DNA of 64,000 nucleotides from Chiloscyllium plagiosum (lineage: Eukaryota). Shown in pieces: positions 9,174 through 43,391 of the stretch. The notes beneath the pieces were generated by a model that made no database searches, had not been told where the DNA came from, and saw only the letters and a program-made list of their open reading frames with translations. Position numbers and translations under genes: made by a program. The stretch covers positions 3,750,917 through 3,814,916 of the forward strand of contig NC_057718.1 in assembly GCF_004010195.1 (NCBI RefSeq), given 5' to 3'. Each line of letters begins with the position of its first letter. Positions within the stretch are counted from its first letter, which is position 1.

Positions 9174-9518
9174 CTATCACTGGTCCAGTCCTTCTCCAAT
9201 CTCCAAGCCTGGAACTTGTCACCGAGAGTCACACGGCTGAGTTACAGTGCACCATGAGGAACACCACAGTGACACACACCGATGTTCAGTGGTACCAACT
9301 GTCCCCAGAGCAAATTATGAAGCAGGTTTTAACACATACAGGAAATGGCTCCACACAACGGAGCCCAGGATTCACTGAGCGATTCCAGCCTTTCAGAGAC
9401 CCCTCCAATATCAGCTTCATTCTGACCATCACAAACGTTCAGCCCAATGACACTGGGGTCTATTACTGCTCTGTCTGGGGAAAGATCTATGGAAGTGGAA
9501 GCCAGCTCATTGTAGACA
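9174..9518 (+). CDS. Ig V-set (VJ-type) domain exon D1 of a multi-V-domain ITAM-bearing receptor
   Basis: Acceptor ttttttttaaag| and donor |gtaagt; 345 nt, phase 1/1, open frame ITGPVLLQSPSLELVTESHTAELQC...VQWYQ...FILTITNVQPNDTGVYYCSVWGKIYGSGSQLIVD with canonical Cys, Trp, DxGxYYC and a J-like YGSG strand. Confidence 0.92.
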
Positions 9519-11962
9519 GTAAGTAGAGTTTACATGACAATCACTTCCAAAAATAACATCTTGCCCAATGAATGAATTGGAGATCAGTTTGTGATCAAGA
9601 AGATTGAGGTGGTAATGGACAGTGATCTTGGGGATGGATTCACTGTGGGGAAGAACCTGAGCTCAGGTTCAATGTTGGTGGGTGGTGGAGAGAAAGGGTA
9701 TATTTTTGTGACAATGGGAGGAGGATTTTATGGGAAATGTGGAGTTTTATCCTGGAGATTGAGTGATATTAATTCCATTCAATTCACAAGGGTGTCAGTG
9801 CCATCAGGCTGGGTGAGCAGAGTCAGCGAGATTGCTCTGTGAGGTGCCACATCTGCAAGGGAACCTCCCAGGGATTGGGAATGGACCATAGAGCACAAAG
9901 GAGCACACATATCTCTCTTCATTCCAGAGACAATTGGTTCAATCCAGTTCAAAGAGAACCACTCCACATTGAGCATGGGGAAAGGGTACGCGCTTGGTCT
10001 CCATGAGCTCCCACAGCTGAGACTGGCATTGAAGCTGAGATGTTGGCATTATTCTACATTAGACTTCAGCCATTCGAGACGTCAACTAGGGAAGAGTGAT
10101 CATAATATTCTGGGAGTTCCTACGATATTTACCTGGAGCTTCGGGTTGAATATTGCTCAGAGTATGGTTTCAGTCCCCATCCTGGCTCAGGTAGTTCCTG
10201 GGCTTTCTCTTCTACTTGACCCATTGGGTGAGAATGGGCAGCCAATAGCAGATCAGATGTAATGCAGAGAGATGTGAGGATACTTGTATTGAATGGAGAA
10301 ATAAGAGCAGTTAAGATAATTTTATTTAAAAGTGCAATTCTAAATGGTATGCTGAAGCAGTCAGAGCTGGGAGTTTACTCTTTCATTGAAAAACGTTATT
10401 GAATGTATAAGAACCATTACTTAATGTTATGTTGCAAAAATAAAACACTAATTTCACCCAATTCACATGAAGCTGAAGAAAGTCTGAGATGTCAGCACTT
10501 CTAACTTCTGATATGATTTCCTTGCCGCACTGGAATGGTCTTTCTTCCAGGTTTTATTTCTGCAAACAGCATGAATTATTTCTGCAGAGCTGTGTCGCCC
10601 TGTCTGTACTGAATGTATGTTTGAGATTAATGGGATATGGTTTTATCCCAACTAAAATGTAATTGCCAATGTTGTGAAGTTGAAGACATACACTGTAACT
10701 TTAAGACAGAGTGAATGATGTTCTGAAGTGAGAGCTTACAGAGCTGACAGAAACAGTTCTTGGAGTTATGTCAACCCCAATAGGCTTGATACAGAAGGGT
10801 ATTTTCTTTAATGTGTGTGTTATGTCAAGAAATACTGTTGTGATTGCTAAAGTATTGTATTTCATTGTGTGTTTCTCAGTCTTAAAAATAGTGCTTTTAT
10901 GAATATAGCTTGGTACATTATATTCTTTTTCAGTTCTATTCACACAAAAAACACTTCATAAAAATCTCAAAAAATCTTTTCCTCCTGTTGAAACCAAGTC
11001 TGCTGCATTGTGTGTATTTTTTCTCAGTGGAACACTTGCTAGTTTGAAACAAAAAAGAATCCAAGCCAGATTTCAGTCTGGAATCAAATTTGTCCAAAAT
11101 TAACATCAACTGGGACCATAACAACACCAGTCAAAGTGATTGGGAATGTTCCCCTTGGAGAAGGAAAAGCTGAAAAGAGATTTGATCCAAATGTCCCATC
11201 CATCCAGGGAACATTCTGGTCTTAGATGATAACAAGTGTATCCTGGGCCAGAGATGGACGGTGGGATTGAGTGGGACAGGCACTTTAAGAGCTGTTGCAA
11301 GATACATGCATCTGAGAAACTGGGTTCCAGTTCTGTCAGCAGCTCCTGGGCACATGGAGACATGGGATCAGTTAGCAATTAGGAGATCCACAGTGCCAGG
11401 GATACCCAGTCCCAATGAATACACAGGGAACTGTGTACATGCCAGTGGGAGGATTGCAAGGGGTCAGACTCAGGGAAAGGTGATCATTCCGAGGAAAGCA
11501 GTGAGTGGGATGAGGAGGGAATGTGGGATATTTCCTGAAGATGCTGCAGTTTCTGACCAATGAGTGGGTCACCAGATAGGGCTGGGGTCAGGGAGAAGAG
11601 ACCGGGAGACGTGAGGAGCTTGGAGCATCTGGTGGGGGCACAGGATGTGGGGAAGGGGTGGGGGCAGGGGATCAGGACAGGGAGTGGGAAGAGCCTGAGG
11701 CTGGGAGCTGTAATCAGGAGCTGCCCTTTATTCAGGCAACATCACTGTACACTCTGACCCTGTTGCTCTTCTTGAAATATTTACACAAAAGTTATTAAAG
11801 TTATTTAATTACACAAACATGGTTGGTTTGATCTGCTCCAGTTTCATTGATTCAATTTTTAACCAGATCCATATTTAATGCAGAACGTGTTCCCTTTGAA
11901 CATTGTGGCACATTGTGACCTGAACAAATGATTCTTATATTCTTGATGTTTTTCCTCAAAAG

Positions 11963-12307
11963 GTGCATCTGGTCCAGTCCCTCTCCAGTCTCTGATAGTG
12001 GAACGTGTCACCGAGGGTCACACTGCCCAGTTACAGTGCACCATGAGGAATGCCACAGTGACACACACCGATGTTCGCTGGTACAGACAAGAACCAGGGA
12101 GTCATGTGACGTGGTTATCCACACGTGAAAGAAAGTATTCCACACAATGGAACACAGGGCTCACTACTCGAATCTCATTTTCCAGAGACAACTCCAGTAA
12201 CAGCTTCATTCTGACCATCACAAATGTACAGCCCAATGACACTGGGATCTATTACTGCACAGTGCAGGGAAGGATCGAAGACAGAGGAAGCCTGCTCATT
12301 GTAAACA
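11963..12307 (+). CDS. Ig V-set (VJ-type) domain exon D2
   Basis: Acceptor tttcctcaaaag| and donor |gtaagt; 345 nt, phase 1/1; ASGPVPLQSLIVERVTEGHTAQLQC...VRWYRQEPG...DTGIYYCTVQGRIEDRGSLLIVN; the G-strand diglycine motif is degenerate. Confidence 0.9.
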
Positions 12308-13469
12308 GTAAGTAGAGTTTACATGACAATTTTCTTCCAGCAATGGCCTTTTTCCAAATGAATGAATAGGGGTGCCTTTGCAATCAGGATAATTGAGGAA
12401 GTGATGGAGAGTGATTCAGGGATGGATTCACTGCAGGGAGGAAGGTCAGCTCAGGTTCGGTCATTCCCCAAAGTTGCCCCTCGCTGGGTGTAGCCTCAGG
12501 AGTATCTATGAGGGTGAGTACAGTGTGGCTGTTCGCTGAGCTGAAGGGGATGTTTCATCTTCACTGAGTCCTCATGTTGGACAGACATTTGGAGAAAGTG
12601 GGAACAGCCTTGTGATGATTGGAGGAGGTGGAGTGAAACAGTGCAGTGATGGGGGAGATGGAAATGTTGACCAGGTTTCTGAGGGTGAAATGATGAATGT
12701 AAGGTGTTCAGGAATGGTGCCCTGGGGACAGCACTGAGATGATCAGAGTCTGGAGGAGAAACCACTGGTGCTGGGAGGAAGCTGATGAGAAAAGCAGTCA
12801 GAGGGGGACATAGAGAGAGCAGTGCCAGGTGCTGCAATGTGTGTCTGAGATTTTCCAACAGAATGTGGACTCAATGTTTCTCAAAGGAGTGGAGAGTTGC
12901 GAGAGTAAGTAGGGGGAGAGACAGTGAGATGCACAGTCACACGAAGATCAGTTGTGATGCTGATTAGTGGTGGCTCAGTGTTGGGGCTGGGAGTGAATCT
13001 GGATTCCAGGATCTGGAACAGGGAGTAGGCAGGAGCTGGCTCCCCATTGTAAGAGGAAAGAGGCAGTCGGATGGTTGGTCTGGATTGTGGGGACAGAGGG
13101 ACTCTGTGTGGTGCTGCTAATTGGCCTGGGAAGGAGCATTGTTGATGTGAGGAGCTCTGTGCTCACATTTCCCTCATACAGGCAGTCAGTGATTTGGATC
13201 AATTTTCTGACAGTTTGTTGAGTTTGCTAAGAAATAGTTTTCTCGATATGAAATATTACTGACTGAGATAAATAAAGTGTCCATCCATGATAATGGGGGA
13301 TGGTTCACTAGGATCAGCTGACAAACAGGGTATTAGTGTCCAGTGTTTCAGTCTCATTAGTGATTGTAGTGTGGGTGAGGGTGGAGAGGGAGTTGAGATG
13401 GGTGTTAAGGGGGTGGTGCAGCATCCTGCTCTCTAGAGCATGGGACATGTGACAGTCCAGCCCAGGAAC

Positions 13470-15742
13470 AGACCCTTCAGCCCATAAACTCAGTGTCAAT
13501 CATGAAACCATTCTAAATGAATCCCATCTGCCCACACATGGTCCATATCCCTCTATTCCGTCCCTGTGTATGTGTCTGCATAAATGTCTCTTAAGTGCAA
13601 CTGTTGAATCTATTTCTACCACATCCCCTGGCAGTGCAGTCCAGACATCTGCCACTCTCTGTGTAATAAACTTCCCTCACACATCTTCTTTAAGTTTCAC
13701 CCCCTTCACCTTAAACCTACACGCCACCTGTGTTTGACATTTTCACCCTGAGAAAAACACTCTGACTATCCATCCTATCCATGTCTCTCATAGTTTTATA
13801 AACTTCTACCAGGTCGTCCCTCAGTCTCTGATTCTCTTGTGAAAACAATCCAAGTTTGTCCACCCTCTCCTTATAGACTCATGCACTCCAATCCAGGTAG
13901 CATCCTGGTAATCCTCTTTTGCACCCTCTCCAATGTATCCACATGCTTTCAATAGTGTGGTGACCATGATTGCACACAATACTCCAAATGTGGCTGAACG
14001 AAAGTGCTATACAGCTGGAAATTGACATGCCAATTTTCATCCTCAATGCACCATCCAATGCAGCCAAGCATGCCATCTCCCTTCTTTACCATCTTAGCCA
14101 CTTGTATTGCCACTTTCAGGGAGCTATGGACTTGCATCCCAAGATCCTTCTAGATATCAATGCTCCTGCGGGTCCTGCTATTTATTTAGTCTTTCTTCTC
14201 GCATTTGACCTCCCAAAATGCATCACTTCACACTTGTCCAGCTGAAACTCCATTTGCCATTTCACCAGACAACTTTCCAATTTATCAAAATCCCACTATA
14301 TCCTTTGGCAACCTTCTTCACCATCCACTACTCCACCAATTATTATGTCATCTGCAAACCTACTGAAACATAGAAAATAGGAGCAGGAGTAGGCCTTTCA
14401 GCCCTTCGAGCCTACACCAGCATTCAAAAAGATCATAGCTGATAATACAATCTCAGTATCTCATTCCTGCTTTATCTCCAGACCCTTTATTCTTTTAGCT
14501 GTAGGCCACGTCCAGTTCCCTCTTGAATATATCTGGCCCCAACAGTTTCCTGAGGGAGATAATTCCACAGTTTCACAATTCTGAGTGAAGAAATGCTTCC
14601 TCATCCTTGTTCTGAATGGTTTACCCCTTATTCTTAGACTGTGACCCCAGTTCTGAAATTCCCCAACATTCGGAACATACTTTCCACATCTAGCCTGTCC
14701 ATCCCATCAGGATTTTATATGTTTCTGTGAGATCCCCCTTCATTCATCTAAATTCCAGTGAGTACAAGCCTAGTTGATCCAGTCTTTCCTCATATGTCAC
14801 TCCTGCCATCCCAGGAATCAGTCTGGTGAACCTTCACTGGGCACCCTCAAAAGCAAGAATGTCCTTCTCAGACTAGAAGAACAAACCTGCACACAATACT
14901 CAAGGCATGGCCTCACCAAGGCCCTGTGTAACTGCAGCAAGACATCCTTACTCCGATACTCAAATCCTCTCACTATGAAGGCCAGCATGCCATTAGCTTT
15001 CCTCACTGCCTGCTGTACCTGTGTGCCAACCTTCAATGACTGTTCCACCATGACACCCAGGTCTCATTGCACCTCACCTCTTCCTAAACTGCCACCATTC
15101 AGATCAGAATCTGCCTTCCTGTTTTTACAACCAAAGTGGATAACCCCACATTTATCCACATTATATTACATTTGTCCACTCTGGCAGTCTGTCCAAAGCA
15201 CCCTGCAGCCTTTTAGTATCCTCATCACAGCACACCCTGCCACCCAGCTTAGTGTCATCTGCGCAGTTGGAGATATTGCATTCAATTTCTTCGTCCAAAT
15301 CGTTAATGTGTATTGTGAACAGCTGGGGTCTCAGCACTGAATCCTGCGTTATCCCACTCAGCAATGCCTGCCATTCTGATAAGGACCTCTTTATTCCAAC
15401 TCTTTGCTTCCTGTCTGTCAATCAGTTTTCTATCCATGTAGATACATTCCTTTTAATACCATGAGCTTTAACTTTCCTGACTAATCTTATGTCTGGAATC
15501 TTGTCAAATCCTTCTGAAAGTCCAGACACACATTTATGGCTTCACCCTTGTCCACTCTACTGGTTACATCCTCTATAAAAGTCCAGGAGATTTGCCAAGC
15601 ATGATTTCCTTTTAATGAATCCACACTGACTGGGACCGATTCTGTTACTACTTCCCAAATGCTCAATTAGTCCATCCTTAATGATTGACTCCAGCAATTT
15701 CAACACCACCAATGTCAAGCTGACTGGCCTATAATTCCCCAT
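13470..15742 (-). mobile_element. Two adjacent CR1 LINE fragments (about 13470-14365 and 14367-15742)
   Basis: RT motifs NYRPVSLT, GITQDSVLRPQLF...ADDTK, LVRPCLEYC; second 3' tail at ~14370. Confidence 0.85.
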
Positions 15743-16160
15743 TGACTTCCCCCAACAACATCAGTTGTTTTAGTTGAGCCAGGATTGAATCTTTTAGTGT
15801 CCACAGTCAGGTCTGGTCAGCGGTGGGACCAGAAGGGTTTCCAGAAAGTTTATAAATGAGAACGGACTCTTGCAGTGACAGTATCATCAGTGGATTCATC
15901 TGGCAGCATGAGGTAGCTCAAGGCATCATGTTTGCCACTTGGCCTTCTGGACAGTTTTCTGTCACCAAGCACCCCCTTTATTTAGTATGTGACACTGATC
16001 CAGCTCCCTCGGAGCCAGCTCTCAGAGCAGACAGAACCCCTGACACTCCTGTTCATATCTGTCAGCCAGAGCTTCCTGACTGGAACAGATTAATAGCCCC
16101 AGTCAGGGAACTCATATTCCATGAGGTTTACCTGGCTGACCGTGTTACAATCCTGACACA
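15742..16160 (-). mobile_element. Gypsy remnant + LTR, paralogue of 1288-1710
   Basis: Colinear similarity with 1288-1710, including the flanking gggtcccaccatta. Confidence 0.7.
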
Positions 16161-16229
16161 GGGTCCCACCATTAAGTGTATAGCTCCTGCCCTGGTTTGC
16201 CTTACCAATATACAACACATCACATTTGT

Positions 16230-17822
16230 CTAAATTGACTCCATCTACTAATCCTTGGCCCATTGGCCCATCTGATCATGGTCCAATTGGATACTAAGAT
16301 AAACGTCTTCACTGTCCACTGTTTTGGTATCATCTGCAAACTTACTGACCAAACCATTGACACTCATACCCAATTCATTTATATAAATGATGAAAAGAAG
16401 TGGATTCAACACCGATCCATGTGGAACACTGTTGGGCACAGGCCACCAGTCTAAAAAGCACCCCTCCACCATCACCCTCTGTCTCCTCCATTCCAGTCAA
16501 GTTTGTATCCAATTTAGAAACTCCTCCAGATCCCATCTGATGTCACTTTACTAACCAATCTATAATGCAGATCCTTCCTCAGTATTAGCTGACTGCGAAT
16601 TTATTCCATTCAAGGTCTTCTTTCTGATCCTCAACGGGGAACATCATCACAAATCCTCCCTCTGAATTATCTTCACCTTCCAGGAGAGTTTCAGCTCCCC
16701 TTTCATTTGTTTGTGGTGTCACATCAACCCTTACTGACCGATTTTCTTTACTCAGTGCTCTGGTTCCCACACACGACTGATAGATCCCAGAAATCTGTTC
16801 CTGCAAGTGTTCTGTTTCTTCAACAAAAGAACCAGGAGCAGGAGTCGGCCATCTGGTCCTTCGAGCCTGCTCCGCCACTCAATAAGATCATGACTGATCT
16901 TTTCATGGCCTCAGCTCCACTTACCCACCCTCCAAACATAACCCTTAATTCCTTTCCTGACCAAAAAGTTATCTATCTTAGGTTTAAAAACATTCAACGA
17001 GGAAGCCTCAACTTCTTTACTGTGCAGGAAATTTCACAGATTCACCACCCTCCACAATTCAGTCAAAACTTTGCTCCCCCTAATTTTGAGGCTGCGCCCT
17101 CTTGACCTAGTTTGAGCCACCAATGGAAACATCCTCTCTACTTTGATCTATTTTCTTCATAATTTTATTCTTCCACAAGATTCCCTCTCATTCTTCTAAA
17201 TTCCAATGAATATAATCCCAGTCTACACAATCTCATAAGTCAACCGCCTCAATTCCAGAATCATCCTCGTGAACCTCCTCTGCACCCAGTCTCGCCCCAG
17301 TGCAGCCTTTCAACTTCCTTTGGACATTTTATGTTTGTGGGCGAAGTTGCGAGCTTTCCAGCCAAGCCATTTCCCTGAAGGAATGTGCCCGTATTTCAGG
17401 GTGGGAGACCGGTGGCAGGATTGGGGCCCTGGCTGATATCTTTGCACCATCGCTTGCCAAGGCTGAGGTTCTGGAAGATTGGAGGGTAGCAAATGGTGTG
17501 TCCTTATTCAAGGAGGGCTGCAAAGAGAAACCTGGGAACTATCGACCAGTTAAGCCTAACATCTGGGGGAGGCAGGTTACTTGAGAAGATTCTGAGGGAT
17601 AAGATGTACATACATCTGGAAAGACAGGGTTTGATTAGGAGTAGTCAGCATGGGTTTGTGCATGGGAGATCATGCCTTACAAATTTATTTGAGTTCCTTG
17701 ACGAAGTGACCAGAAAGGTTGATGAGGGCAGGGGGTTAGATGTAATCTATATGGATTTTAGTAAGGCCTTCAAGAAGGTTCCACATGAGAGGCTGCTCCA
17801 GAAGTTTAGACAACATGGAATT
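16230..17822. mobile_element. Cluster of CR1 fragments (minus 16230-16580 and 16830-17290; plus 17400-17822)
   Basis: FADDTK, NYRPV and SQHGFVHGRSCLTNL...DVIYMDFSKAF motifs. Confidence 0.8.
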
Positions 17823-18343
17823 ATTATTGTCGCTATTGCTGGGGGTGAGCTGCATTCTTGAACTACTGTGGTCCATGTCCTGCACATAGACCCATTATGC
17901 TCTGAGGGAGAGAATTCCAGCATTTTGACCAGCAGCACTGAAGGAACGGTGATATATTTTCAAGTCAGAATGGTGAGTGGCTTGGAGGGGACCTTGCAGG
18001 TGGTGGAGTTCCCATGTATCTGCTGCCCTTGCCCTTCCAGATGGAAGTGAATGTGGGTTTTGATCGTGCTGCAGAAGACATTGATGTATCCAAAATGTCG
18101 AAGAGATTTTCAACAGAATTAAGAAATATTATTTCACACACTGTTTATTTAATTATATCTGTTTATGTGGACGGATTTTATTTGATATAATTCAGTCACA
18201 AATGCAGCTCTATGGATTAGTATAACAACGTGTTCTCACAATTTAATTGAAAATTCCTACCACTCTGCCAGATCCTTTCAATATGGTAGTACAGGGAATC
18301 TGCTCTTGTGGGAATAAACATCTTGTTTTCTTTTTCTTTAAAG

Positions 18344-18688
18344 GTATCAATGGTCCTGTCGTTCTCCAATCTCCGTGTCTGGAACGTGTCATTGAGGGTC
18401 ACACTGCCCGGTTACAGTGCACCATGAGGAACGCTGTAGTGACACACAACGATGTTCACTGGTACCGACTGTCCGCAGACCAAATTATGGAGCGGGTTTT
18501 AACACATCCAGGAAGTGGCTCCACACAACGGAGCCCAGGGTTCACTGAGCGATTCCAGCCTTTCAGAGACGCCTCCAATATCAGCTTCATTCTGACCATC
18601 ACAAACGTCCAGCCCAATGATACTGGGGTCTATTACTGCTCAGTCTGGGGAAAGGTCTATGGAAGTGGAAGCCAACTCATTGTAGACA
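18344..18688 (+). CDS. Ig V-set (VJ-type) domain exon D3
   Basis: Acceptor tttttctttaaag| and donor |gtaagt; 345 nt, phase 1/1; close paralogue of D1; ends DTGVYYCSVWGKVYGSGSQLIVD; extra Cys in the A strand (QSPC). Confidence 0.92.
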
Positions 18689-20595
18689 GTAAGTAGAGTT
18701 GACATGACAATCACCTCCAACAATAATCTTTTGCCCAATTAATGCATTGGAGATCAGTTTGTGATCAAGAAGATTGAGTAAGTGATAGAGAGTGATCTCA
18801 GGAATGGATTCACAGTGAGGAGGAAGCTGAGCTCAGGTTCAGTGTTCTTAGGTGGTGGGGAGAAAGGGGATACTTTTGTAACAATGGGAGGAGGGTTTTG
18901 TGGAAATGTGAAGCCTTATCCTGGAGATTGTGTTATATTAATTCCATTCAACTGACAAGAGTGTCAGTGCCATTGGGCTGGATGTGCAGAGTCAGGGAGA
19001 TTGCTCTGTGAGGTGCCACATCTGCAGGGGAATCTCCCAGGGATTAGGAATCAACCGTACAGGACAAAGGGGTACACACATCTCTCTCCATTTGAGAGAC
19101 AATTGGTTTGATCCAGGGTAAAGGGAACCACACCGCATTGAGCACAGGGAAAGGGGAAGGGCTCGCTCTCCATGAGCTCCACAGCTGAGATTGCGATAGA
19201 ATAGACAATAGAAGCTGAGATGTTGTCATTATTCTACATTATACTCCAGCCATCTGAGCCACCTGACTGGGGAAGAATGATCATAATATTCTGGGAGTTC
19301 CCAACATAATTAGCTGGAGCTTCGTGTTGAATATTGCTGAGAGCCTGGTTTCAGTCCCCATTCCTGGGGCTTTCTCTTTTACTTGTCCATTTAGGGTGAG
19401 TGGGCAGCCAATAGCAGATCAGATATAATGCAGACAGATGTGAGGATATTCAGATTGAGTGGAGAAATGAGAGCAGTGGAGACAATTTTATTTAAAAGTT
19501 TAATTCTAATGGTGTGCAGGAGCAGACAGATTTGGGAGTATACTCTTTCATTGAAATAAACCATGAAATGTTCAGAAACCATTCTGTAAAGTTTTGTAGT
19601 AAAAGTAAAGCACTAATTTTGCACAATTCACATGAAACTGAAGAAATTCTGAGATGTCAGCACATTCTGACTTCTGATGTGATATCCTTGCTGCACTGGG
19701 GTGGTCTTTCTTTCAAGCTTTTTTTTGACAAACAGCATGAACTATTTCTGCAGAACCAGGTTACCCTGTCTGTGAATAAATGTATGTTTAAGATTAATGG
19801 GAGGTATTTTAATTTCAAATACAAATGCAGATGTTGATCACATTTTCTGCTTGTTTCAAGAATCTGTCTAGCTGACAACCAATGTCAAGTTTATTGTCAT
19901 TAATCAACCTGCTATTTGTTGACTTTGGATTGGAGGACAGAAAATAGACAAAATAGTGTTGATTCAGTGACAGATTTAGTATGACTTGTGATATTAGAGA
20001 CTAACTGCTGATGAGAGGTGTATGGTTTCTGTTTAATTTTAATATCATTTTGCATTGAGTTTGGATTCTGAACTAGTGACATGTAGTCTTTGGGCTTTGT
20101 GTGTATGAGAGGATTTAAAGATTACAATGACAATATTGCTGGAGTGACAATCATTTTTTTCAAGAAGAAATCTATCTGACAGAAACAGTTCTTGGATTGT
20201 GAATGGGAAATTGTTTGCACTGGGTGAGCTTTTATAAGCAGACAAAGTAAACATTGAAATCATTAGGGTGCTTAGAGGTTGATGGAATTGTATTGTTTTT
20301 CAGTTCAAAGAGGCACATTTACATGGAAAGCCTGATTTTTATAATTCACCGAGTCCTGGCGTATGTTAAATATATAAAACATTTTCTTCTGATGAAAGGT
20401 GATAGTTTTGAATTGTTAAGAAGTAGGAACCTCAGTATAAGCCGCTTAATTTGAGAACTCCCCCCCCAAAAATGCCAAATTTAACCCAACTCTCTGCCAT
20501 TGTTTAGTCAGTAAATCCTCTGTCTTTACTCCCTGTTACACTGAGGACTCTCTTCGTATTAAGTAGTTTAATTTGTGGTACCTGACCAAAAGTGG

Positions 20596-20890
20596 TTGGG
20601 ACAGTGGCTCAGTGGTTAGCACTGCTGCCTTGCAGCACCAGGGACCCTGGTTCAATTCCAACCTTGTGTGGCTGTCTGTGTGGCGTTTGCACATTCTCCC
20701 TGTATCTGCATCTATTTCCTCTAATATTCCAAAGATGTGCAGGTTTGGTGAATTGACCATGCTAAAGTGTTCAGGGATGTGTAGGTTTAATGCATTAGTC
20801 TGGGATAAATATAAGATAAGGTCTGGTTGGTTACTCTTCAGAGGGTCATTATGGACTTGTTGGGCTGAAGTTTCTGTTTCCACACTGCAG
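20596..20890 (+). mobile_element. HE1-like SINE
   Basis: gtggctcagtggttagcactgctgcc...ggttcaattcc head and family body. Confidence 0.8.
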
Positions 20891-21222
20891 GGATTCTATA
20901 AAGCATTTTGTAAGTTCAAATGCACGATCGACTGGATACCCTTTATCTATGCTGTTTCTCACCTCATCAAAAAATTCCAATAAATTTGTCCAGCATTATT
21001 TATTTTTCACGACGTCATGCTGACTCTGCTGGATCATACGAGACATTTCTAAATGTTTTGCCAATACCATCATCATCATCACCATTTTCATTACTATTAT
21101 CACCACTGTCATTGTGAATATTATTGTTGCTTATTACTAGTGGTGATCTGCCTTCTTGAATTTCTGCAGTCCATGTGCTGTAGGTAGATCCACAGTGCCC
21201 TGATGGAGGGAATTCCGGGATT

Positions 21223-27800: not shown

Positions 27801-30034
27801 GAAAAATAATTTGAATGTATCCTTGAATGTTATGACCTTAATATGATGGCTTATTAAGGAAATGGATACCATCACGAATTCAGGCAGATGAGAAATGGGC
27901 AGAAGTTCATCAAGTCATATTGCCACTTGGTTATAGAATGGAGGTGTTGTGAGCAGCACATGAGCTGCTACTAGAGGGTCATTAAGGAGTGAGAAAACAT
28001 CAAGTTAACATACAAAACATTTTTACTGGCCTGGATTGCACAAGGATCTCATTGAATTTTGCCAGGCATGTCATAAAGGTTCCTGATGAATGGTTTTTGC
28101 CCAAAACGTTGATTCTCCTGCTCCTCAGATGCTGCCTGACCTGTTGTGCTTTTCCAGAACCACACTCTCAACTCTGATCTCCAGCATCTGCAGTCCTCAC
28201 TTTCTCCTATGTCATATATGTCAGGTAATCGGAAAACCACATACAATAATAAAACCCTCACCTTTAATACCTATTCCTGCATTTGAGGAAACTTTTCCAA
28301 GAGTCTTAATTGATTGCATAGGAGCCCTACCTAAAACAAAAAGTGAGAATCAGTATTTGATAACAATAATGGGTGTGTCCTCTCGATTTCCAGAGGCCAT
28401 TCTATTTCACAGTATCACAGCTAAAAGGATTGTGGAGGAATTATTAAAATGTTTCATTAGTTGCGGACTTCCCACAGAGATGCAATCAGATCAGGGGTCA
28501 AACTTCATGTCTAATTTATTCAAGGAAGTTATGGACAGCTGAAGACTAAAACAATTCAAATTTACTGCATACCATCCTGCGTCGCAGGGACTGCTCGAAA
28601 GGTGTCATCAGACAATAAAAACCATGTTGAAGGCTTATAGTCAAGACTACCCAGTTGATTGGGAGAAGGGAATTCCATTTGTACTTCTTGCAATCAGAGA
28701 TGCATCAAAACAATCAACCAAATTCAGATGCTTTGAATTAGATTTTGGGCATTAAGGTGAGAGGACCACTAAAATTAATGAAGGAGAAATTGTTAAGTCA
28801 TAATTCAGAGACCACATATTTGGACTATGTGTCAATTTTTTGAGAATGATTAAATAGAGTGGGAGAGTTGGCGAGACAGCATTTAAAAGTATCACAGCAT
28901 ACAATGAAACATGAAGAAGACAAAAAAATCAAAAACGTGCAATGTTGCTGCAGGAGATAAAGTTTTACTGTAACTTCTCAGGTGAGCTGAACCTTTAAAA
29001 GCAAGGTTTAGTTGATCTTATCAAGTCAAAAGGAAATTGAATGAGCTGAACCCCCTATTTGCTCAGGACTCCAAACTGAAAGAAATCTCACAGAATGTGT
29101 CATGCAAATATGCTCAAAACGTCATTTGACAGGGAAGCAAAGAGAGAGGACAATGTGTTATTGGTTACAACACAGAGTGAAGAACCAAGTTCAGTGGCTT
29201 CTTAACTGGACATTCCTCAAATTAAATTGGACAATCAAGAAGGTGTCAAAATTTGAGATAAATTATTGTGTTACTTTCCAGAGAGAAATCAAATCGATCT
29301 GAAAGAGATATGACCGTACGGGAAGATATGTGGAAATAAGCTAGGAAGTACAAACCTAATAATGCATGATCTACCTATCACATTCTCAGCTGACTTGGCC
29401 CCAGCCCCACCCCCTCCCATTTATCTTTCAGCACTCCCAACCCACAAACCTCATTCCTGATGAAAAGCTTATGCTTGAAATGTCGATTCATCTGCTTCTC
29501 AGATGCTGCCTGACCTGCTGTGCTTTTCCAGCACCACATTCTCGACTCTGGTCTCCAGAATCGGCAGTCCTCAGATTCTCCTAATTATACATGATGTAGA
29601 TATAGGAGATGCTGTTGCAAGTAAGCAACATCCTTGTTGGCCTAACCCTCTAAAGTTAGCACAGGTTGAAAAGGAGATTGAACGCATGCTCCAAAATAAC
29701 GTAATCGAAGTGAGTTCCAGTGACTGGAGCTCATCCATGGTAATGGTGCCAAATGGGTACGTGTGGACGATTGCAAGGTCAATGCACTTACAAAGACTGC
29801 ATATCCAATTCCACCATTGGAAGACTGTGCTGAGAAGCAACTTATATTTCTCAGTTGGACTTGCTCAGAGGTTACTGGCAAGTACTTTTGTCAGAAAGAA
29901 CAAAGGTAATTTTGGCTTTCATAGCACCAAATAGACTGTATCTGTTTGTAGTCATGCCATTTGGTATGAAAAATGTTTCAGCCACATTTCAGAGACGATC
30001 CATTGCCAGATTATCTAATTGTGTCAAATATATA

Positions 30035-33000: not shown

Positions 33001-34157
33001 TCGCAAATACGCTAGAAAGAGCCCCAATTATTCAGGAAACGAAAACCCTCCCTCCTGTACCATCCCTGTATACACATGTTCAACTCTTCTCTCTCCCCAT
33101 GTCTTGCCTCGCTAGCATGTGGCACGTTCAACAAATCAGAGACAACAATTCTGTTGTTTTAGCTCTAAGCTTCCACCCTAGCTCCCTGAATTTCTGGCTT
33201 AAATCCCCACCTCTCTTCCTACCTATGTCATAGTGTCTATGTAGACCACAAATTGGGGCTGATCCCCTCCCCTGCAAGAATCCTGAAAATACAGTCAGGG
33301 ACACCATGGACCCTGGCACCTGGAAGGCAACACACCAAACGTGAGTCTCTCTCGTTACTACAGAACCTCTTATCTATCCCCTTAACTATCAAGTCCCCAA
33401 TTGCTACTGCTCTGCTCCTCTTCCCCTTTCACTTCTGAGCAACAGGGACATACTCTGTGCCAAAGACCTGTGCCCCATTGCTTGCCCCTCATACGTCATC
33501 CCCCTCAACAGTATCCAAAACTATATACTTGTTGTTGAGAGGAAGGGCCAGAGGAGATCCCTGCACTGTCTGCAATTCTTTTTCCATCCCCTGACGGTAA
33601 GCCATCTCCCTTCTTCTTTTACCTGAGGTGTGACTACCTCTCTGTAACTCCTCTCAATAACCTCCTCCACATCCCAAATGATCAAAAATTCATTCAGCTC
33701 CAGCTTCAGTTCCTTAATGCGATTAACGAGGAGCTGGAGTTGGATGCAGTTCCCACAGATGAAGTCAGCAGGGACAGTAGTGGTGACCCTTACTTCCCGC
33801 ATTCTGCAGGAGGAACATTCAACCACCCTAACCTCCATTCCCACTATTCTAAATTTTCAACAAAATTACTGAAAAAACTAAAAATAAAGAAACCAGTCAC
33901 CTCACCAATTGGTGCACGCAACATTTTCTTTGGTTAGAGGTGCAGTACAGGTGGGAGACACTGTCTGAGTAGTGTTTTGGGTAAAGCAACCATCCAAGTA
34001 TAAAGCCTTACTTACCCAGCAGTCCCATGTCTGCTCCTGCTCAGTGTACGCTCCGCCTATACGCGAGGTAAACCTTTATACTTTTTAAAACTTACCTTTT
34101 GTCGGGCCTCTGGTCCTCACTGTCGCTCCTCCCACTCCAACTGCTGCCGATAAAAAA
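30035..34157 (-). mobile_element. Near full-length degenerate CR1 LINE nested in the Gypsy RT
   Basis: (agaacat)n tail; RT and endonuclease motifs; ORF1 zinc finger ECSSCRM...ICGNC at 33521-33844. Confidence 0.9.
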
Positions 34158-34481
34158 GATGACCTGGTGATTTTTATTCACACCTGGAAGGAACATTTGC
34201 AACATTGATCAGAATTGTTCGATCGATTTCAGAAGGCAGGCTTGGTGACAAACATAGCCAAAAGTCAATTTTCCAAAGGCCAAGTCACCTTCGAGGCCAT
34301 GTTATTGGACATGGACAAATAACCCCATGGGATGGAAAACACAAGGTAATTGGAGATTTTCCCATACCATCAACAAAAATAGCAGTGCTATGATTCCAAC
34401 GTTGAAAATTATCGCAAATTCATACTAAATTTAGCATTGTGGCTGCTCCACCTACTGAATTGTTAAAGAAAGACAAACAGT

Positions 34482-34767
34482 GGGCACACGGTGGCACAGT
34501 GGTTAGCACTGCTGCCTCACAGTGCCAGAGACCCGGGTTCAATTCCCGCCTCAGGCGACTCTCTGTGTGGAGTTTGCACATTCTCCCCGTGTCTGCATGG
34601 GTTTCCTCCAGTGCTCTGGTTTCCTCCCACAATCCAAAAATGTGCAGGTTAGGTGATTTGGCCATGGTACATTGCCTATAGTGGTAAATGTAGGGGAATG
34701 GGTCTGGGTGGGTGGCGGGTCAGTGTGGACTTGTTGGGCCGAAGGGCCTGTTTCCAATCTGTAAGTT
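34482..34767 (+). mobile_element. HE1-like SINE nested in the Gypsy element
   Basis: ggtggcacagtggttagcactgctgcctcacagtgccagagacccgggttcaattccc head. Confidence 0.88.
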
Positions 34768-35812
34768 TCAGTGGACTCTTTGCTTATTGATAGGACATTT
34801 TATTAAGGGGGAAAGGTGATACAGAACTCTCTCTGATTTGATTTGGTTTTAGTAGTCCGGCTATTCACTAAAAGCAGTCAGGCAGTTGTAAAACCTGCTG
34901 GACCAAAGGAAGCAGGTCCATGCTGATCCTCTCTCTGACATCTCTCCTGTATTTTATTTTACCTTTTGTTTGATTTTTGATGTGTTTGATTTTACCTTTT
35001 GTGCCAAGATGTGTTTATGGGAATTGTTGCAAATATTTGGAACAGCATCATGACGTTGGTATGGTCTTCTGGGTTTTCAGATAGGTTACGTTATTCTGTA
35101 TTCTGTTCTCTTTTGTTTGTGTTTCATTCAGTAATCTAGTAAATACATTTTATTTTGTTTAAAACTACGTGGTTTGATCAACTGCATCCCTCCTGGAATA
35201 TCGATGTTATACCTGCTTAAAGCAATGAGCAAATTTAGGGTCTGAGCCACTTTCGTGAAATGTTTTGAGGGGGTCTGACCTTGTCCATAGCAAACAGAAC
35301 CTCTGACACTCCTATTCTTTACTGTCAGCCAGGGCTCCCTGATTGGACCAGGTTAGCAGTCCCAATCAGGGAACTCATGTCCTGTGACATCCACCTGGCT
35401 GACCTCATTACAATCACTACAAAGAAACAATGATGCATTCTAAGAAAGGATGATGAGTGTTTTGGAGGGTAGCTTTCCGGGGGTGGTGTTCTCATCTATT
35501 TGCTGCTCTTATCCTTCCAGATGGAAATGGACCTGAGTTTTGATTCTGCTGTAGAAAATGGGCATGTACAAAATGTTGATCAGATTCTGACGAAAGTTCA
35601 GAGATATAATTTAACACTGTTTTTATAGTTATTTCTGTTAATGTTGATGGATTTTTTATCTGAATCGGTCACAGATGTATCTCAATTGTTCAGTGTAACT
35701 ACGTGTTCTCTCTGTTTAACTCAAAACTCCTACCACCCTTTCAGATCTTTCAATACGGCAAAACAGAGAATCTGTTCTTGTAGGAATAATGTATTGTTAT
35801 TTTTCTTTAAAG

Positions 35813-36157
35813 GTTTCACTGGTCCAGTCCTTCTCCAGTCTCCGAGCCTGGAACGTGTTGCCAAGGGTCACACTGCCCGGTTACAGTGTACCATGAGAAA
35901 CGCCACAGTGACACACACTGATGTTCACTGGTACAGACTGTCCCCAAAGCAAATTATGGAACGGGTTTTAACACATCCAGGAAATGGTTCCACACAATGG
36001 AGCCCAGGTGTCACAGAGCAATTCCAGTCTTCCAGAGACTCCTCCAGTAACAGCTTCACTCTGACCATCACAAACATGCAGCTCAGTGATACTGGGGTCT
36101 ATTACTGCTCAGTCTGGGGAAGGATCTATGGGAGAGGAAGCCAAATCAATATCACCA
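35813..36157 (+). CDS. Ig V-set (VJ-type) domain exon D4
   Basis: Acceptor ttttctttaaag| and donor |gtaagt; 345 nt, phase 1/1; FTGPVLLQSPSLERVAKGHTARLQC...HWYR...DTGVYYCSVWGRIYGRGSQINIT. Confidence 0.92.
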
Positions 36158-36859
36158 GTAAGTAGAGTTTACATGGCAATCTCCTCCAGTAATAACCTCT
36201 TACCCAATGAATGAATTGGAGATCAGTTTGCGATCAAGAAGATTGAGAAGGTGATGGACAGTGATCTCAGAAATGGATTATCTGTGGGGAGGAAGCTGAG
36301 CTCAGGTTCAGTAATTTATTTAATTGTTTTGTGAGATGTGGGTGTCACTGGCTGGGCCAGCATTTATTGCCCATCTTTAATTGCCCTTGAGAAGGTGGTG
36401 CTGAGCTGCCTTCTTTAACCACTGCAGTGACCCATTGGTTGCCATTCCTGGGTTGCAGTCGGGCTCCTACACACTCTGTTAAGACCCTGCTAAACGGTTC
36501 TTCAAAAGCTACGATCAGAATTAAGGGTGAAGCTTTAATTGAGGGTTGGCGATTCCCCAAGTCCTGACATGGACTATCTTGTCTGCTAAAATTTAACATC
36601 TTTATATAATCCTGACCAATAAAAGTGCTTTAATATATTAGATTGTGTGTTCCTCATCCTTAAATGAGCTGCCATTGGTATTTCATGAGCTAGTTTGCAA
36701 AATTTCATTCTGGTTTCAGATGGAGTGACCACCTGACAGACCACTGTCTATTGCTCATCTCCTGGTATTTGGGATGGTCTTTATTTCCTCACTAATACAT
36801 TGTGTTTCAAGCAATAACAGTCAGAGACTGCTTCTGATTCCATTTCGGGGGATAAAAAC

Positions 36860-37485
36860 AAAAATTGCTGGAAAATCTCAGTATTTGTTGAGAGAAATCA
36901 GAATTAATATTGCGGGTCCAGTGACCCTTGTACAGAACAAATGGCACCGAGGAAAATGATGATTTTTATACAGAAGATGGGGTGGGGAGGATGGTCAGGG
37001 TAAACGATAGATGAAGATAGAGCCCAGTGTGAGAGAAGGACTGTTGGACACACAAAGGAGTGGGTAATGGTCAGTCTGGAGGAATGAACAGCTGATGATG
37101 GAACAATTAGTAACTGACAATGGGTAGTGTGCTGTAGCTGACTGTGTAATGACAAGGCCTGGTGTATGGAGGAGGGGGAAAGCATGGAGAAAGGTGCTCA
37201 GTCTCTAAAATTGTTTAACTCAATATTAATTTCAGAAGGCTGCAGGGTAACCAAGTAGAAAATGAGGTGCTGTTGTTCCAGCTTGCTCTGAGCTTCACAA
37301 GAGCACTGCAGCAAGACTGAGACAGAGATGTTGGCCAGGGAACACGACAGTGTGTTGGAGTGGCAAGCACCTGGGAGGTTAGGATCATTTTTGCAGACAG
37401 AATGGAGGTGTTCTGAGAAGGGGCATCCAGTCTGTGTTTCATTTCCCAAATGAAGAGGAGACCACATTATGAGGAGTGAATACAG
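36860..37485 (-). mobile_element. Old Penelope-like 3' fragment
   Basis: Minus-strand HLGNET..FSEHL...KLEQQHLIFYL..LQP..INIE resembles the GIY-YIG C-terminus seen at 47400-47670. Confidence 0.55.
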
Positions 37486-37499
37486 TTTGTCTCATCACA

Positions 37500-37835
37500 G
37501 AATACTCAGAGGCCTGAATAGAGTAGAGTTGGAGAAGATGTTTGTTGGAGAGAGTAGGATGCAGGGCATAGCCTTACAGTGAAGGGATGATCAATTACAG
37601 CTGAGATGAAGAGGGATTTCTTCAAACAAAAGATGGTAAATCTGTGGAACTCATTGCTGCAGCGAGCTGCAGAGGTCAAGTCATTGAGTATATTCAAGAC
37701 AAAGATAGATAGGCTCTTATGAGCAAATGGATCAATGGAGAGAGAGCAGGAGAATGGGATTGAAACATATCAGCCATGATCGAATGGCAGAGCAGACCTG
37801 ATGGGCTGAATGGCCTAATTCTGCTTCTATATCCT
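37500..37835 (+). mobile_element. CR1 LINE 3' end
   Basis: ORF2 tail and 3' UTR (gatgggctgaatggcctaattctgcttc). Confidence 0.72.
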
Positions 37836-37993
37836 GCGGCCTTATGGTCTATAATGTCATATATATTTTGAATAATTAACCCCACTGGTTCACTCTGATC
37901 CTCTTATCATCTGTCCTTTCTCATTAACTCTAAATTGGAGTCCTTCAGAAAGTTCAGATGAGTTTTAATTTATTCAGATGTTTTCTCTTAAAG

Positions 37994-38338
37994 GTGCAAA
38001 TGTCCCAGTCCTTCACCAGTCTCTGAGGCTAGAACGTGTCACCGAGGGTCACACTGCTCGGTTACAGTGCACCATAAGGAACACTGCAGTGACACGCACC
38101 AACGTTCACTGGGACCGGGAGAAACCAGGAAATAAGATGGAGTGGGTTTTAACACATGACATGAGGAACATCACACAATGGAGCCCAGGATTTACTGAGC
38201 GATTCCAGTCTTCCAGAGAGCCCTCCAATAACAGCTTCATTCTGACCATCACTAACACGCAGCCCAATGACATTGGGGTCTATTACTGTAAAGTGTGGGG
38301 AGATATCAGTGGGAATGGAACCCAACTGACTGTTACAG
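37994..38338 (+). CDS. Ig V-set (VJ-type) domain exon D5
   Basis: Acceptor ttttctcttaaag| and donor |gtaagt; 345 nt, phase 1/1; ANVPVLHQSLRLERVTEGHTARLQC...HWDREKPG...DIGVYYCKVWGDISGNGTQLTVT. Confidence 0.9.
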
Positions 38339-41300
38339 GTAAGTGTTCTTTCCCTTAGAATAATCTGATACAGCAACCATTTCCACATGGATTTATTGAA
38401 GAGGAGAATGTGTTAAATTCCTCTTGTAAAGAGTAAGCAGAGAGCTCGATATAAACATAAAACAATTCTCCGCTTTTACTCACAGATAGATTAAACTGTT
38501 TCTCCTCTTGGACCAGTTCCTCAATCTCAAACTCTTTCTCTTCTGTCTGTCTTTCTGCTTCTCCATCTCATTTATTTTCAGTGTTGGATTCTCCTGTCTC
38601 TGTCTGGCTTTGTTTCATTCACTCTTATGATGGGGCCATCACCGGCCGGGCTGGTACTTGTCCATCATGAATGGTCCTTGAGAAGAAATGGCTTCTCTGC
38701 CACGGGAAGCAGCTTTGGCCAAAACATTGAATGTCTTCAGGGGAGAGTTAGATATAGTTCTGAGGGCTAAAGGGTTCAAAGGGTAAGGGGAGAACATGGG
38801 AATGATGGACTGAGTTGGATGATCAGCCATGATTGTGTTGAAAGGCAGTGCAGGCACAATGGGCTGAATGGCCTACTCCAGGTCATATTTTGTATGTTTT
38901 GAGAAGGTCATGGTGAGCTGCTTTCCTGAGCTAAAAATTTCGACTTTACACAAGTTAGGAGGGGGAGTGCTTGGATGGGAACCTGAAAGAGATGCTGCCC
39001 CATGTACCTGCTGCCTTTGTCTTTTCAGATGGGATAGGCTGTGGGTTCGGAAGCTGCTGTTGGAGGAGCCTTGGTGAATTACAGAAGGGCATCTTGTAGA
39101 TGGTACACACTGTACATCAGTGTAAAAGGAAGTGAACGTTGAAGGTGTGAGTTGTGGTGTCAATCAGGCAGGCTGCTTTCTTCTGGATGGCATGAAGCTT
39201 CATGAGTGTTGTTGGAACTGCACCCATCCAGGCAAGTTGTTCCATCATCCTCCTGATTTCTGCTTTGTTGACAGGCAGGCTGTGGGAGGCAGAGTGTGAG
39301 CTATTCACCTCGACCTGCTGTTGTAGCCACAGTATTTGATCACTGCTCCAGTTAATGGACATGTTAGTGTGGAAGCGCAGGTTGTGGTTCATCAGGGAAT
39401 TGTTTTCCATTTTTCTGACGGGGTGTGGGCATCACTGGCAAGGGCAGTATTTGTTCCTCATCCCTAATTGCCCTCCAACTGAGTCACTTGCCTGTTCATT
39501 TCAAAGGGCAGTAAGAACAAACCACATTGCTGTGTGTCTGAAGTTACATGTGGGCCAGATCAGGTAAGGATGGCAGATTTCCTTTCCTGATGAACATTAA
39601 TAAATCAGATGGGTTTTTACAACAATTGATGGGAACATCAGGAATTAAGGTGATATGTTTCCAGCTCTCAGTTAGCCTGGAACTGTTATGTATTATTGTC
39701 TTATGACTTGTTTGTAAGTACATTCAATAAAGAAGCAAACAGTTCTTGTCTTGTTTGGGGAAGCTGTTGCCCATAAGAGGTCTGGGTGGTATAAGGGGTG
39801 ACTCTGTAATTACCTAGCACTGTGTTCATGTGTTGATGTCCTTTTTGTTCTACAAATCTGGACGACACAAGTTTCTGGACAACATTAGATGCTTTATTAT
39901 CAGACAACCGGCAAGAGATTCTTAATGCGACCAGAAGTAATCCTTTATCAATTTGTGGTGACACTTCTCTACGAATCTCGGCTCTACACACAAAGGCAGT
40001 AATTTTTAACAGAATTAAACAAACGGTCTATAATTCACATGGTTGATTTTCATTACATTACTTAAGATAGGCAATTAATATGTTACAATGCCCAGTTATT
40101 GTCACTGTCCTGTGATAATGAGTGGATAGAATACAGGGACTGATTATTATATTCTTCATCAATGTGTGTTGATGGGAAGAGATTAAAACAGGAGAGCTTT
40201 ACTTATTCTCAATGTGGGATTCACATACCTATGTTAATCGAGAGAGGAAGCAAGATAATGGGAGCAGGAGGCAGTTAATAGAGTTATGGCCAAGGATGTC
40301 AGTCTTGTCCAGGGAGGACAAATACCTTTGCCAAAGGCTGCAAATGGATTCCACATGTATGGTTCCAGAGGATTCAGTTCTCTGAGAGTCAGCCAGCTCC
40401 CCTACTGAGACATCCTGTCTCATTTTGTGAGAGGCCAGACATGCAATTGATACTTCAATAAGTCCTCTTAGCAATGGAATGTTTAACATTTGAGTCATGA
40501 AAATGTATGCCATGAAAAACAAGTAAAAGATGGAAATGATGACTCTGTAACTTTCTAACTTCCACACATGTAGTGAAGGGTTTGGTGCCAAGGCTGCACA
40601 CAGGAGCTCACCAATACTCCATCAGCCTGTATTTATCTTTAGTTGGAGAGTTTAACAGAATACAAAGGGAGTTGTTTTGTAGAAACTTGTTGTATTACAC
40701 AGACATTCACTTCCATGAGTCAGTTCCACATTAAAACTGGATCTGTTTCTCAAAGTCATTTAAACTAAAGGTTAAACTGGGCTCCAGTGGAACTCATTAA
40801 GATGTGAGTAAGTAATCTGTGAAATTTCAAACTTACAGCTCTCAAGTCTTTAGGCTGTCATTTCCCACAATCCTCTGCAGCTCCTGTTCTGCTCAATGAT
40901 GCTCCCACTTGCCCCTCTGATGTCCTTGTCCTGAGCTAAACCCTTCCTCATCCCAACCGGATTACTCTCCTTATGACTTTCATTCATTCCCTTAGTCCAA
41001 GAGACCCAGACAGAGGGACATAGGAACTGGAGGAGACCATTCAGCCCATTATGCCTGCTCTACCACTCAATTAAATGATGGATGATCTGATATTAATCTC
41101 AACTGTACGTTCCTACAAATCTCTGGTCACCTTTCACCCCCGGGTCATCAAGAATCTCCCTCCCTCTGCCTTAAAAAAAATTTCAAGATTCTGCATCCAC
41201 TGTCTTTTGATGAAGGGAATTCCAACGACTCACAGCCCACTGAGAAAAACATTTCCTCATCTCTGTCTTCAACCTGCAATCCCTTATTTTTAAACTCTGA

Positions 41301-42336
41301 CCCTAGTTCTAGATTCTCCCTGAAGAGGAACCCGGTCAAGTCTCCTCAGGATCTTACAGGTTTCAATGAAGGCCCCTCTGAGCCCAATGGGATCCAGAGT
41401 GAACACATCTGGAGGAAGGGTTTGCAGCTCGAGGAAGTTTGGATCCGAGTTGAGGAGCTGGAGTCTGAGCTGCAGACATTGTGTCACATCAGGGAAGGGG
41501 AAAGTTCCCTGGAAACATTTCTCCAGAGGGTGCTCCCGCCTCATGGATTTGGGAATTGGAGATGAATCATGGATCAGAGACAGGAGGCTGTGACTGCAGG
41601 TGAGGATGGTGTGGATCCCAGACCTTTCTAACAGTGTGCCCAATGTCACAGGTTTGAGTTTGGGACCTGACTCCAAGGATTCCCCGACTCTGGGATAATA
41701 ACCCAGGTCAGGAGTGGAAGGGAAAGTCTGAGGTACCAATCAGAAGGGCCTCACTTTGCCCATTACTGACTCAATTCCAGGCAAGTGCAGTCAGGGTCTA
41801 TCTGGCTCAGGGACAGAATCAGAAAATCACAGAAAATTACCAGTGTAGAAGGAAACCATTCAGCCCATCCTGTCTGCACTGACTCTTCAAATGAGCATCA
41901 TTCCCAACTGCCAATGTCCTGCTCTCTCCCCACAGCCTTGCAGTGTTAGGAGATAGAATCGAATGGAACAACAGTGAATGAGAGAGGGTGTCCTCAGGGA
42001 GAATCGATTGCAGGCTGTTGAAACTTTTGACTTTATTCTTTTGGTTTTCTGTGAGAATGAAACATTTTAAATGGCTGCTCAGACTATTCAAATCAGTCAG
42101 CTGTGAGCATCGTGAAATTCTCCTCTCGATAATTTATTCACAAAATGATTCACAGCAGCAAATTGGAAAGCATTCAGTGATGGATATGTTTCAAATCATT
42201 CCTTCTCAAATTACAAGCAGCAATATCCACACAGGAAGCTTCAGTTCATCCTCAGCAAATCATCATTTAACCAGGAGGAGATTTTATAAAATGTTACAAA
42301 TCCAATAATCCTATTTTTTATCTTCAAAATGAACAG

Positions 42337-42684
42337 ATCCATTGGTTGATCCAGTCCTCATTCAGGATCCAGTGGTCAGCAAGGTAGCAGAGGGTGAAAC
42401 TGCCGAGTTCCAGTGTGCCATGTACAATGCCAGTGTGATTGACACTGATGTCCACTGGCACTACCAGCGACCTGGCAGCAGCAGGGAGTGGATGATAAGC
42501 CACTTTGTGAATGGCACCCTCACCAAGACCCAGGGTTTCCACGATCGTGTTCAGCTTTCCAGGAATGTCAGCAGGAACAGTTACACTCTGAGCCTTGTGA
42601 ATGTGACGCTCAATGATACTGCTGTGTACAGCTGCAGTGTGTGGAGCTACATCTATGGAGCAGGGAGCCAGCTCAATGTAACTG
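42337..42684 (+). CDS. Ig V-set (VJ-type) membrane-proximal domain exon D6
   Basis: Acceptor gaacag| and donor |gtaagt; 348 nt, phase 1/1; PLVDPVLIQDPVVSKVAEGETAEFQC...HWHYQRPG...DTAVYSCSVWSYIYGAGSQLNVT; most divergent domain, six N-glycosylation sequons. Confidence 0.9.
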
Positions 42685-43240: not shown

Positions 43241-43391
43241 AAGAATCTTCCCATGGTATTCCCCGGACTTCAGATCCCACTTTAATCATTGGCACCATTC
43301 TGGGCCTCGCTGTCTTAATCTGCATTGTCCTGCTCACATTTTACCTTTGGAAACGAAACCTGTGCTCATCAGTAAAGGACTCCACACAAGG
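43241..43391 (+). CDS. Stalk + transmembrane exon
   Basis: Acceptor tattttacag| and donor |gtaaat; phase 1/2; (E)ESSHGIPRTSDPTLIIGTILGLAVLICIVLLTFYLWKRNLCSSVKDSTQ(G): ~23-aa hydrophobic helix followed by a KR stop-transfer signal. Confidence 0.88.

Follow-up and report, generated by a model that had tools for sequence, protein, structure and literature searches.

Single-exon V-J receptors of cartilaginous fish: a paired receptor family with a probable origin in germline-joined sigma-2 light-chain genes

When the V and J parts of an antigen-receptor-type domain lie together in one germline exon, was that exon never split by RAG, or was it joined again afterwards? The question is raised by a stretch of 64,000 nucleotides from the bamboo shark Chiloscyllium plagiosum (G000:C9:3750917-3814916, here called the window; coordinates without a contig are window positions), which holds most of a gene with a series of such exons. 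Interest in single-exon V-J genes lies in the search for survivors of the gene into which RAG inserted (PMC12227049; papers are cited by such numbers). The family to which the gene belongs has the look of a survivor of this kind, yet it seems to have arisen after RAG. Its V-J domains probably derive from a germline-joined V-J of the immunoglobulin (Ig) light chain sigma-2, recruited into innate paired receptors, and the balance of evidence tilts towards a single RAG-made germline joint in a light-chain gene as the founding event, in the ancestor of cartilaginous fish. A reading made from the sequence alone had proposed two origins, a descendant of the pre-RAG ancestor or an ancient germline-joined V-J in a new receptor; the second is the better supported and the first is disfavoured.

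Six stop-free V-set exons, D1 to D6, lie on the forward strand (Pfam V-set, E 7e-16 to 9e-18). They are D1 (9174..9518), the second V of the gene, D2 (11963..12307), D3 (18344..18688), D4 (35813..36157), D5 (37994..38338) and D6 (42337..42684), the last of a membrane-proximal type conserved in sharks and rays. D3 belongs to a recent copy of the D1 unit (18111-19827 against 8941-10659, 83.5% DNA identity). All six are single-exon V-J units with an AG acceptor and a GTAAGT donor, phase 1-1, and an AlphaFold model of D5 is a whole V domain including the G strand (predicted local distance difference test, pLDDT, 95), in agreement with the sequence-only reading, which had strands A to G encoded in one piece. 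The third complementarity-determining region (CDR3), described there as very short, is of six residues in every domain. As for the J-like end that had been claimed, the phase-1 donor is present throughout and the GxG motif is whole in five exons, that of D2 being degenerate (EDRG). Apart from one additional cysteine in D3, the domains contain the canonical pair only. In fold searches the D5 model matched Ig and T-cell receptor (TCR) V domains best, with scores no more than about 1 Z unit apart; this confirms the fold and does not discriminate the donor. PDB sequence searches, dominated by multi-domain antibody constructs, gave no discrimination between V classes either, and an ESM Atlas search returned solely generic V-set clusters and the one formed by the family itself.

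D1 to D6 are parts of one gene, most of it inside the window. This goes beyond the first reading, as do the transmembrane and signalling exons at 43241-52787, an upstream leader and a seventh V. The NCBI protein P0002 of C. plagiosum, 100% identical, runs through D1-D6, the transmembrane exon and four tail exons to 52787; the model is without the gene start, the leader and first V being absent from it. Because a leader exon (G000:C9:3734924-3734977) and a further V, the first of the gene (G000:C9:3744485-3744826), are located upstream of the window, seven V domains are most likely. The transmembrane exon (43241..43391, forward strand, as are those of the tail) encodes a hydrophobic stretch without a charged residue. 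Four cytoplasmic exons follow, all placed by P0002. The first (45286..45329) carries a YENV tyrosine (YxN), by its consensus a putative Grb2-type site, and the second lies at 48173..48246. The third (51521..51562) stops within the first YxxL of an immunoreceptor tyrosine-based activation motif (ITAM), YxxL-x7-YxxL, and the fourth (52746..52787) supplies the rest of the motif and the stop codon. A phase-0 intron splitting the first YxxL, as found here, has been described as typical of ITAMs (PMC2110893). In contigs of presumed RNA runs from two studies a D6-type donor is joined directly to a paralogous transmembrane exon, and one contig of a presumed RNA run joins the end of a preceding V to the start of the D5 exon at the predicted boundary. 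One raw RNA run showed next to no coverage of the exons, which speaks neither for nor against transcription. The predicted product of the window gene is a non-rearranging type I receptor with an uncharged transmembrane segment and an ITAM tail.

Recombination signal sequences (RSS) do not flank these exons, which sets them apart from rearranging Ig and TCR genes. A scan of the whole window, allowing at most one mismatch in the heptamer and two in the nonamer, found none at any V end, as had been claimed; its two matches (57743 and 36804, with spacers of 24 and 13) compare with 1.07 on average in shuffled sequence. Applied to split V genes of this genome, a scan of this type recovers their canonical 12- and 23-RSS. 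Eleven loci with truncated family matches, scanned as a sample of the cluster, showed no RSS, and their truncation is mostly explained by frameshifts or stops. The claim that the window lacks a C1 exon held as well: an Ig light-chain C1 profile, which picks up even divergent C1 exons on C39, found none in the 94 kb around the window, nor in about 200 kb of cluster loci.

The window gene has many relatives. Of 150 scored genome matches, 108 fall in C9:2.02-4.26 Mb (counted by hand), many of them with stops, and the cluster includes 16 D6-type rows at 83-100% identity. Among 12 transmembrane exons of the window subtype, four lead to ITAM-type exons, the window gene included, and four to exons with immunoreceptor tyrosine-based inhibition or switch motifs (ITIM/ITSM); the remaining four have no tail assigned within 10 kb. 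Regular expressions applied to 62 family proteins, 53 of which have a transmembrane stretch, assign ITIM/ITSM tails to 34, ITAM tails to 11 and neither to eight. Since paralogues carry either ITAM or ITIM/ITSM tails, the family is, judged by its sequences, a clustered, cartilaginous-fish family of paired activating and inhibitory receptors of the immunoglobulin superfamily (IgSF). CEACAM1/CEACAM3-type pairs resemble it in layout: their paralogues are clustered, have ectodomains that are alike and carry an ITIM tail or an intrinsic ITAM, and there are four cytoplasmic exons with the phase-0 intron in the first YxxL (PMC2110893); the ectodomain of the shark family is instead of antigen-receptor V-J type.

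Ligand binding through the variable CC'C''/FG face would lead to Syk-family activation via the ITAM of the window gene, and inhibitory ITIM/ITSM paralogues with similar ectodomains would act through SHP phosphatases, as in CEACAM1/CEACAM3-type pairs. The inhibitory members would most likely bind a self cell-surface protein, with the activating members serving as pathogen counter-receptors. Over 15 exons pN/pS is highest in CC'+C' (1.36, interval 0.98-1.88, against 0.47 in framework region 3), and replacement changes are also raised, less clearly, in CDR2 and CDR3. This CC'-C' excess suggests a ligand face and is no proof of positive selection.

All 46 homologues from a protein search are from sharks and rays, and a profile search over 1.84 billion representatives added members from Callorhinchus milii, including a three-V transmembrane protein. 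No member beyond cartilaginous fish stands among the 150 matches listed, 30 of them named; absence of the family from bony vertebrates is suggested, and only suggested because of that small named number and the bias of the list to multi-domain proteins. The automatic NCBI names of family members are unrelated to one another (perlecan-like, SIRP-like, IgSF3-like). A search of the openly available literature found no description of the family and, for six gene identifiers, no paper; its novelty is provisional, because work outside that literature on V-J genes and NCR3 in sharks may already mention it. Family V exons also occur beyond the cluster, at G000:C9:68311510, C19:35346241 and C34:26078293; two are broken and one is intact, the latter having a counterpart in a related species on the cluster chromosome. 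At L097 (G000:C9:2074868) a family V without a donor is continuous into an open frame of 1511 codons, and P0087, similar to the L097 product, continues in repeats rich in N-glycosylation sites.

From which antigen-receptor gene, if any, could such domains have come? The best genome matches beyond the C9 cluster are the sigma-2 V genes of C39:27.68-27.81 Mb, and in a reverse search from these no other Ig or TCR V gene ranks above the C9 cluster. C39 contains split V-12RSS/J-23RSS-C clusters together with joined V-J-C genes, and in the clade of its genes stands P0246, whose record bears the name type I light chain, a type that is sigma-2, or NS5 (PMC5192425, PMC5985310). Sigma-2 is the nearest non-family class for 49 of 51 family domains and TCR-gamma for none, with classes of own-genome outgroups labelled provisionally by motifs and RSS type, and UrIg rows recognised by visual comparison with the supplement of PMC12227049. 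Mean V identity to the family is 40% for sigma-2, 33 for sigma, 31 for lambda, 31 for kappa, 28 for IgH, 27 for TCR-gamma, 25 for UrIg and 23 for NCR3-like rows. Among the 150 matches listed, the best single-domain scores beyond the family, 79-123 bits, belong to light chains of the sigma-2 class; the remaining Ig and TCR V reach at most 56 bits, NITR-like domains at most 41 and the pIgR-like P0202 15.5.

The junction points the same way. CDR3 is of six residues in 158 of 159 family domains, and the junction DNA consists of a sigma-2 V end (GTG TGG), two codons and a sigma-2 J start. Joined sigma-2-type genes differ in CDR3 length (six in the family, five in the coelacanth, eight at L011, nine at L023), as independent joints would give. 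One joined sigma-2 light chain, L004 (P0048), has the same six-codon CDR3; it was rejected as a direct ancestor, since it nests among carpet-shark split NS5 genes and is too young. Sigma-2 also has a split leader like that of the family, which differs in having no C1 exon, tandem V domains, a transmembrane segment and an ITAM or ITIM tail. No octamer was found in the 14 kb containing the C9 leader, whereas one lies upstream of all three C39 leaders located, and Tyr87, of the heavy-chain interface, is retained in 77 of 136 family domains as against 49 of 49 in sigma-2. The missing octamer and the partial loss of Tyr87 are consistent with loss of a light-chain role.

Phylogenies were built from V only, in alignments of 96 columns that end at the second cysteine, so that CDR3 and J do not drive them. 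Near-duplicate rows were removed, long-branch rows were also left out of the 55-row and UrIg-rooted trees, and none of the trees contains IgNAR, UrIg2 or a curated CD8, VpreB or NKp30 row. The family stands beside sigma-2 in all four careful maximum-likelihood trees (bootstrap 42-93%). The grouping receives 91/92 in the 55-row tree, 93/95 in the UrIg-rooted 37-row tree and, for nine core rows, 87/89 in a 41-row tree with NCR3- and CD8-like rows. Approximately unbiased (AU) tests reject the family with lambda (p-AU 0.005) and do not reject it with either sigma-2 subgroup (0.13, 0.23). When NITR-, SIRP- and pIgR-like rows were added, in a 45-row tree, the family remained apart from all of them (one pIgR-like row standing for the pIgR/CD300 type); grouping with pIgR/CD300-like V, which would have counted against the sequence-only reading, was not seen.

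On the favoured reading, the V and J of a split sigma-2-type gene would have been joined by RAG in the germ line at a time when chimaeras and elasmobranchs had not yet diverged, and the joint would have fixed the six-codon CDR3. The joined exon would have retained the split leader while the C exon and the octamer promoter disappeared, and would have come to precede transmembrane and tyrosine-motif exons before tandem multiplication. Germline joining in sharks is documented and recurrent, apparently by RAG-like activity (PMC2193156). A retrocopy of rearranged mRNA is unlikely, because the leader intron and the J-type donor are retained and no C is fused.

Several observations weigh against this origin. 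The alignments are short, and many long outgroups bring support down to 42/84 in the 45-row tree. The base of a first quick 85-row tree is unresolved, two divergent family rows lie outside the clade in the 41-row tree, and the family is mostly sister to sigma-2 and not nested in it (sigma-2 monophyly 73-90% in three trees, 29% in the UrIg-rooted one). A TCR-gamma sister position is not rejected (p-AU 0.17, 0.15), nor, with long-branch outgroups, is a pre-RAG position (0.10, 0.149). The examined part of the C9 cluster contains no C remnant and no split V. Coelacanth, gar and turtle sigma-2 are joined, as is all bony-vertebrate sigma-2 reported (PMC5985310), and because of this the split sigma-2 ancestor is a deduction, not a demonstrated state. 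The CDR3 length shared with L004 is a parallel event or an exchange. Finally, the splice contigs come from paralogues or relatives in presumed RNA runs and not demonstrably from the window gene.

The first of these AU results bears on a germline-joined TCR-gamma (or lambda) V-J as the source. The sequence-only reading had seen a TCR-gamma or Ig-lambda likeness in the YYCxxW ends; these ends are real and the fold searches did return TCR V domains, but sigma-2 is the likelier donor. With lambda rejected and TCR-gamma 27% identical and never the nearest class, such a source is highly improbable.

On the pre-RAG reading the family would go back to the V-J gene as it was before RAG split it, and would fall outside all rearranging receptors, like UrIg or NCR3. 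Like UrIg and UrIg2, it has single-exon V-J, a split leader, no rearrangement and no RSS, and UrIg likewise survives in cartilaginous fish only (PMC12227049). On the UrIg rooting, however, this position is rejected (p-AU 0.021), and none of 1000 bootstraps unites the family with UrIg, whose V is 25% identical to it against 40% for sigma-2; UrIg, the member of that pair included in the trees, never grouped with the family. UrIg and UrIg2 further differ in having C1 domains and in being MHC- or AgRC-linked (PMC12227049). Neither a PBX nor a NOTCH anchor was found on C9: BRF1 and two deiodinase genes lie on C10, and the PBX/NOTCH matches on C8, C11, C30 and unplaced contigs, the last including some for PBX. 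Together with the restriction to cartilaginous fish among the matches listed, this makes pre-RAG descent unlikely. Two genes in divergent orientation at L130-L132 (G000:C14:79.72-79.76 Mb) may be further UrIg paralogues: in both, C1 exons come after a V-J contained in one exon, and the V falls with UrIg in the tree (99/97) but by eye differs from published UrIg and UrIg2. At L138 (G000:C12:52.10 Mb), too, a C1 exon comes after a V-J contained in one exon.

The joined state of bony-vertebrate sigma-2 (PMC5985310) could also be read in the opposite direction, with the sigma-2 lineage ancestrally unsplit and shark NS5 alone split later by RAG transposition or conversion. A joined V-J is common to the family, coelacanth-type sigma-2 and L011, and L023 forms with coelacanth sigma-2 a clade of joined genes (96/81). 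Against this stand the unequal CDR3 lengths (6, 5, 8, 9), the V-12/J-23 RSS layout that NS5 shares with kappa and sigma, the documented cases of joining, and the lack of an insertion footprint in split NS4 genes (PMC2193156). This direction has a slim chance.

Gene conversion, or slow evolution of both groups, might instead have produced the likeness to sigma-2 in a receptor of other V-set origin. L004, with its six-codon CDR3 and non-ancestral position, and the sensitivity of tree support to taxon choice could be taken in that sense. The loci, however, lie on different contigs (C9, C39), their DNA identity is just about 70% and confined to short stretches, and the likeness is seen in every type of domain and in the members from the elephant shark, which leaves this explanation little probability. 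Recruitment from a germline-joined sigma-2 V-J is accordingly retained as the favoured reading.

By the tests made, the family is not Ig, TCR, UrIg, NCR3 or NITR, and from its predicted tails it would work like other paired IgSF receptors. Teleost NITR are similarly multigene and non-rearranging, with V(J) domains and activating and inhibitory forms, as are hagfish APAR/NICIR. NITR differ in having an I domain with extra cysteines, whereas the window domains are all V-J, and NITR-like rows, besides their low scores, branch elsewhere. In the 45-row tree two teleost NITR-like V domains group with Ig light chain sigma V at 95/97, on long branches and possibly falsely; if true, this would parallel the sigma-2 origin of the shark family. 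NCR3/NKp30, also a single-exon V-J receptor, has one V and a charged transmembrane segment and is linked to the major histocompatibility complex (MHC), unlike the window gene with its seven V, uncharged segment and position on C9; the NCR3-like rows at 23% identity are uncurated and bear a provisional label. The identity of one candidate, L075, as NKp30 could not be confirmed. The second cysteine pair of the CD300/pIgR/TREM/MDIR type is absent from the window domains, and the score of P0202 is low. VpreB and the joined V of marsupial TCR-mu are non-rearranging V from antigen-receptor genes that remain inside antigen-receptor complexes, whereas the shark family is a separate multigene signalling family.

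An age of the family below that of RAG changes the reading of NITR, NCR3-like and other V-J receptors: if true, single-exon V-J receptors cannot be presumed to be pre-RAG relics. Adaptive immunity would then have been a source of innate receptors, the reverse of the usual story, and RAG activity in germ cells would have a possible evolutionary use. The family is also a large source of candidate leukocyte receptors in sharks, both activating and inhibitory.

Other joined light-chain genes were encountered. L023/L045 (G000:C101085), a joined V-J-C gene, groups with coelacanth sigma-2 and not with shark NS5, which suggests two ancient sigma-2 subtypes in sharks. L011/L048 (G000:C45:12483085, 12488010), with a counterpart (P0266) in a second bamboo shark species, combines a single-exon V-J with one light-chain-like C1; it is unplaced in every tree and by identity near sigma-2. 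Among the sigma-2 clusters, two V genes at C39:27759947 and 27817354 (L033, L038) adjoin divergent C1 genes and are presumably PRARP-like. A second joined lambda-like light-chain group (L012-L014, L053; G000:C25:45.14-45.25 Mb) is distinct from that at C25:44.1-44.3 Mb. P0111 of Pogona vitticeps has four tandem lambda-like V domains, each with a J motif at its end, and represents joined genes or an annotation artefact. Within the window itself, introns and downstream sequence contain retrotransposon-like open reading frame fragments, a 1.9-kb self-inverted repeat, a 43-bp tandem array and a 201-bp duplication (28090-28539, 29479-29931, 46099-47990, 49556-50310 and 61669-62068).

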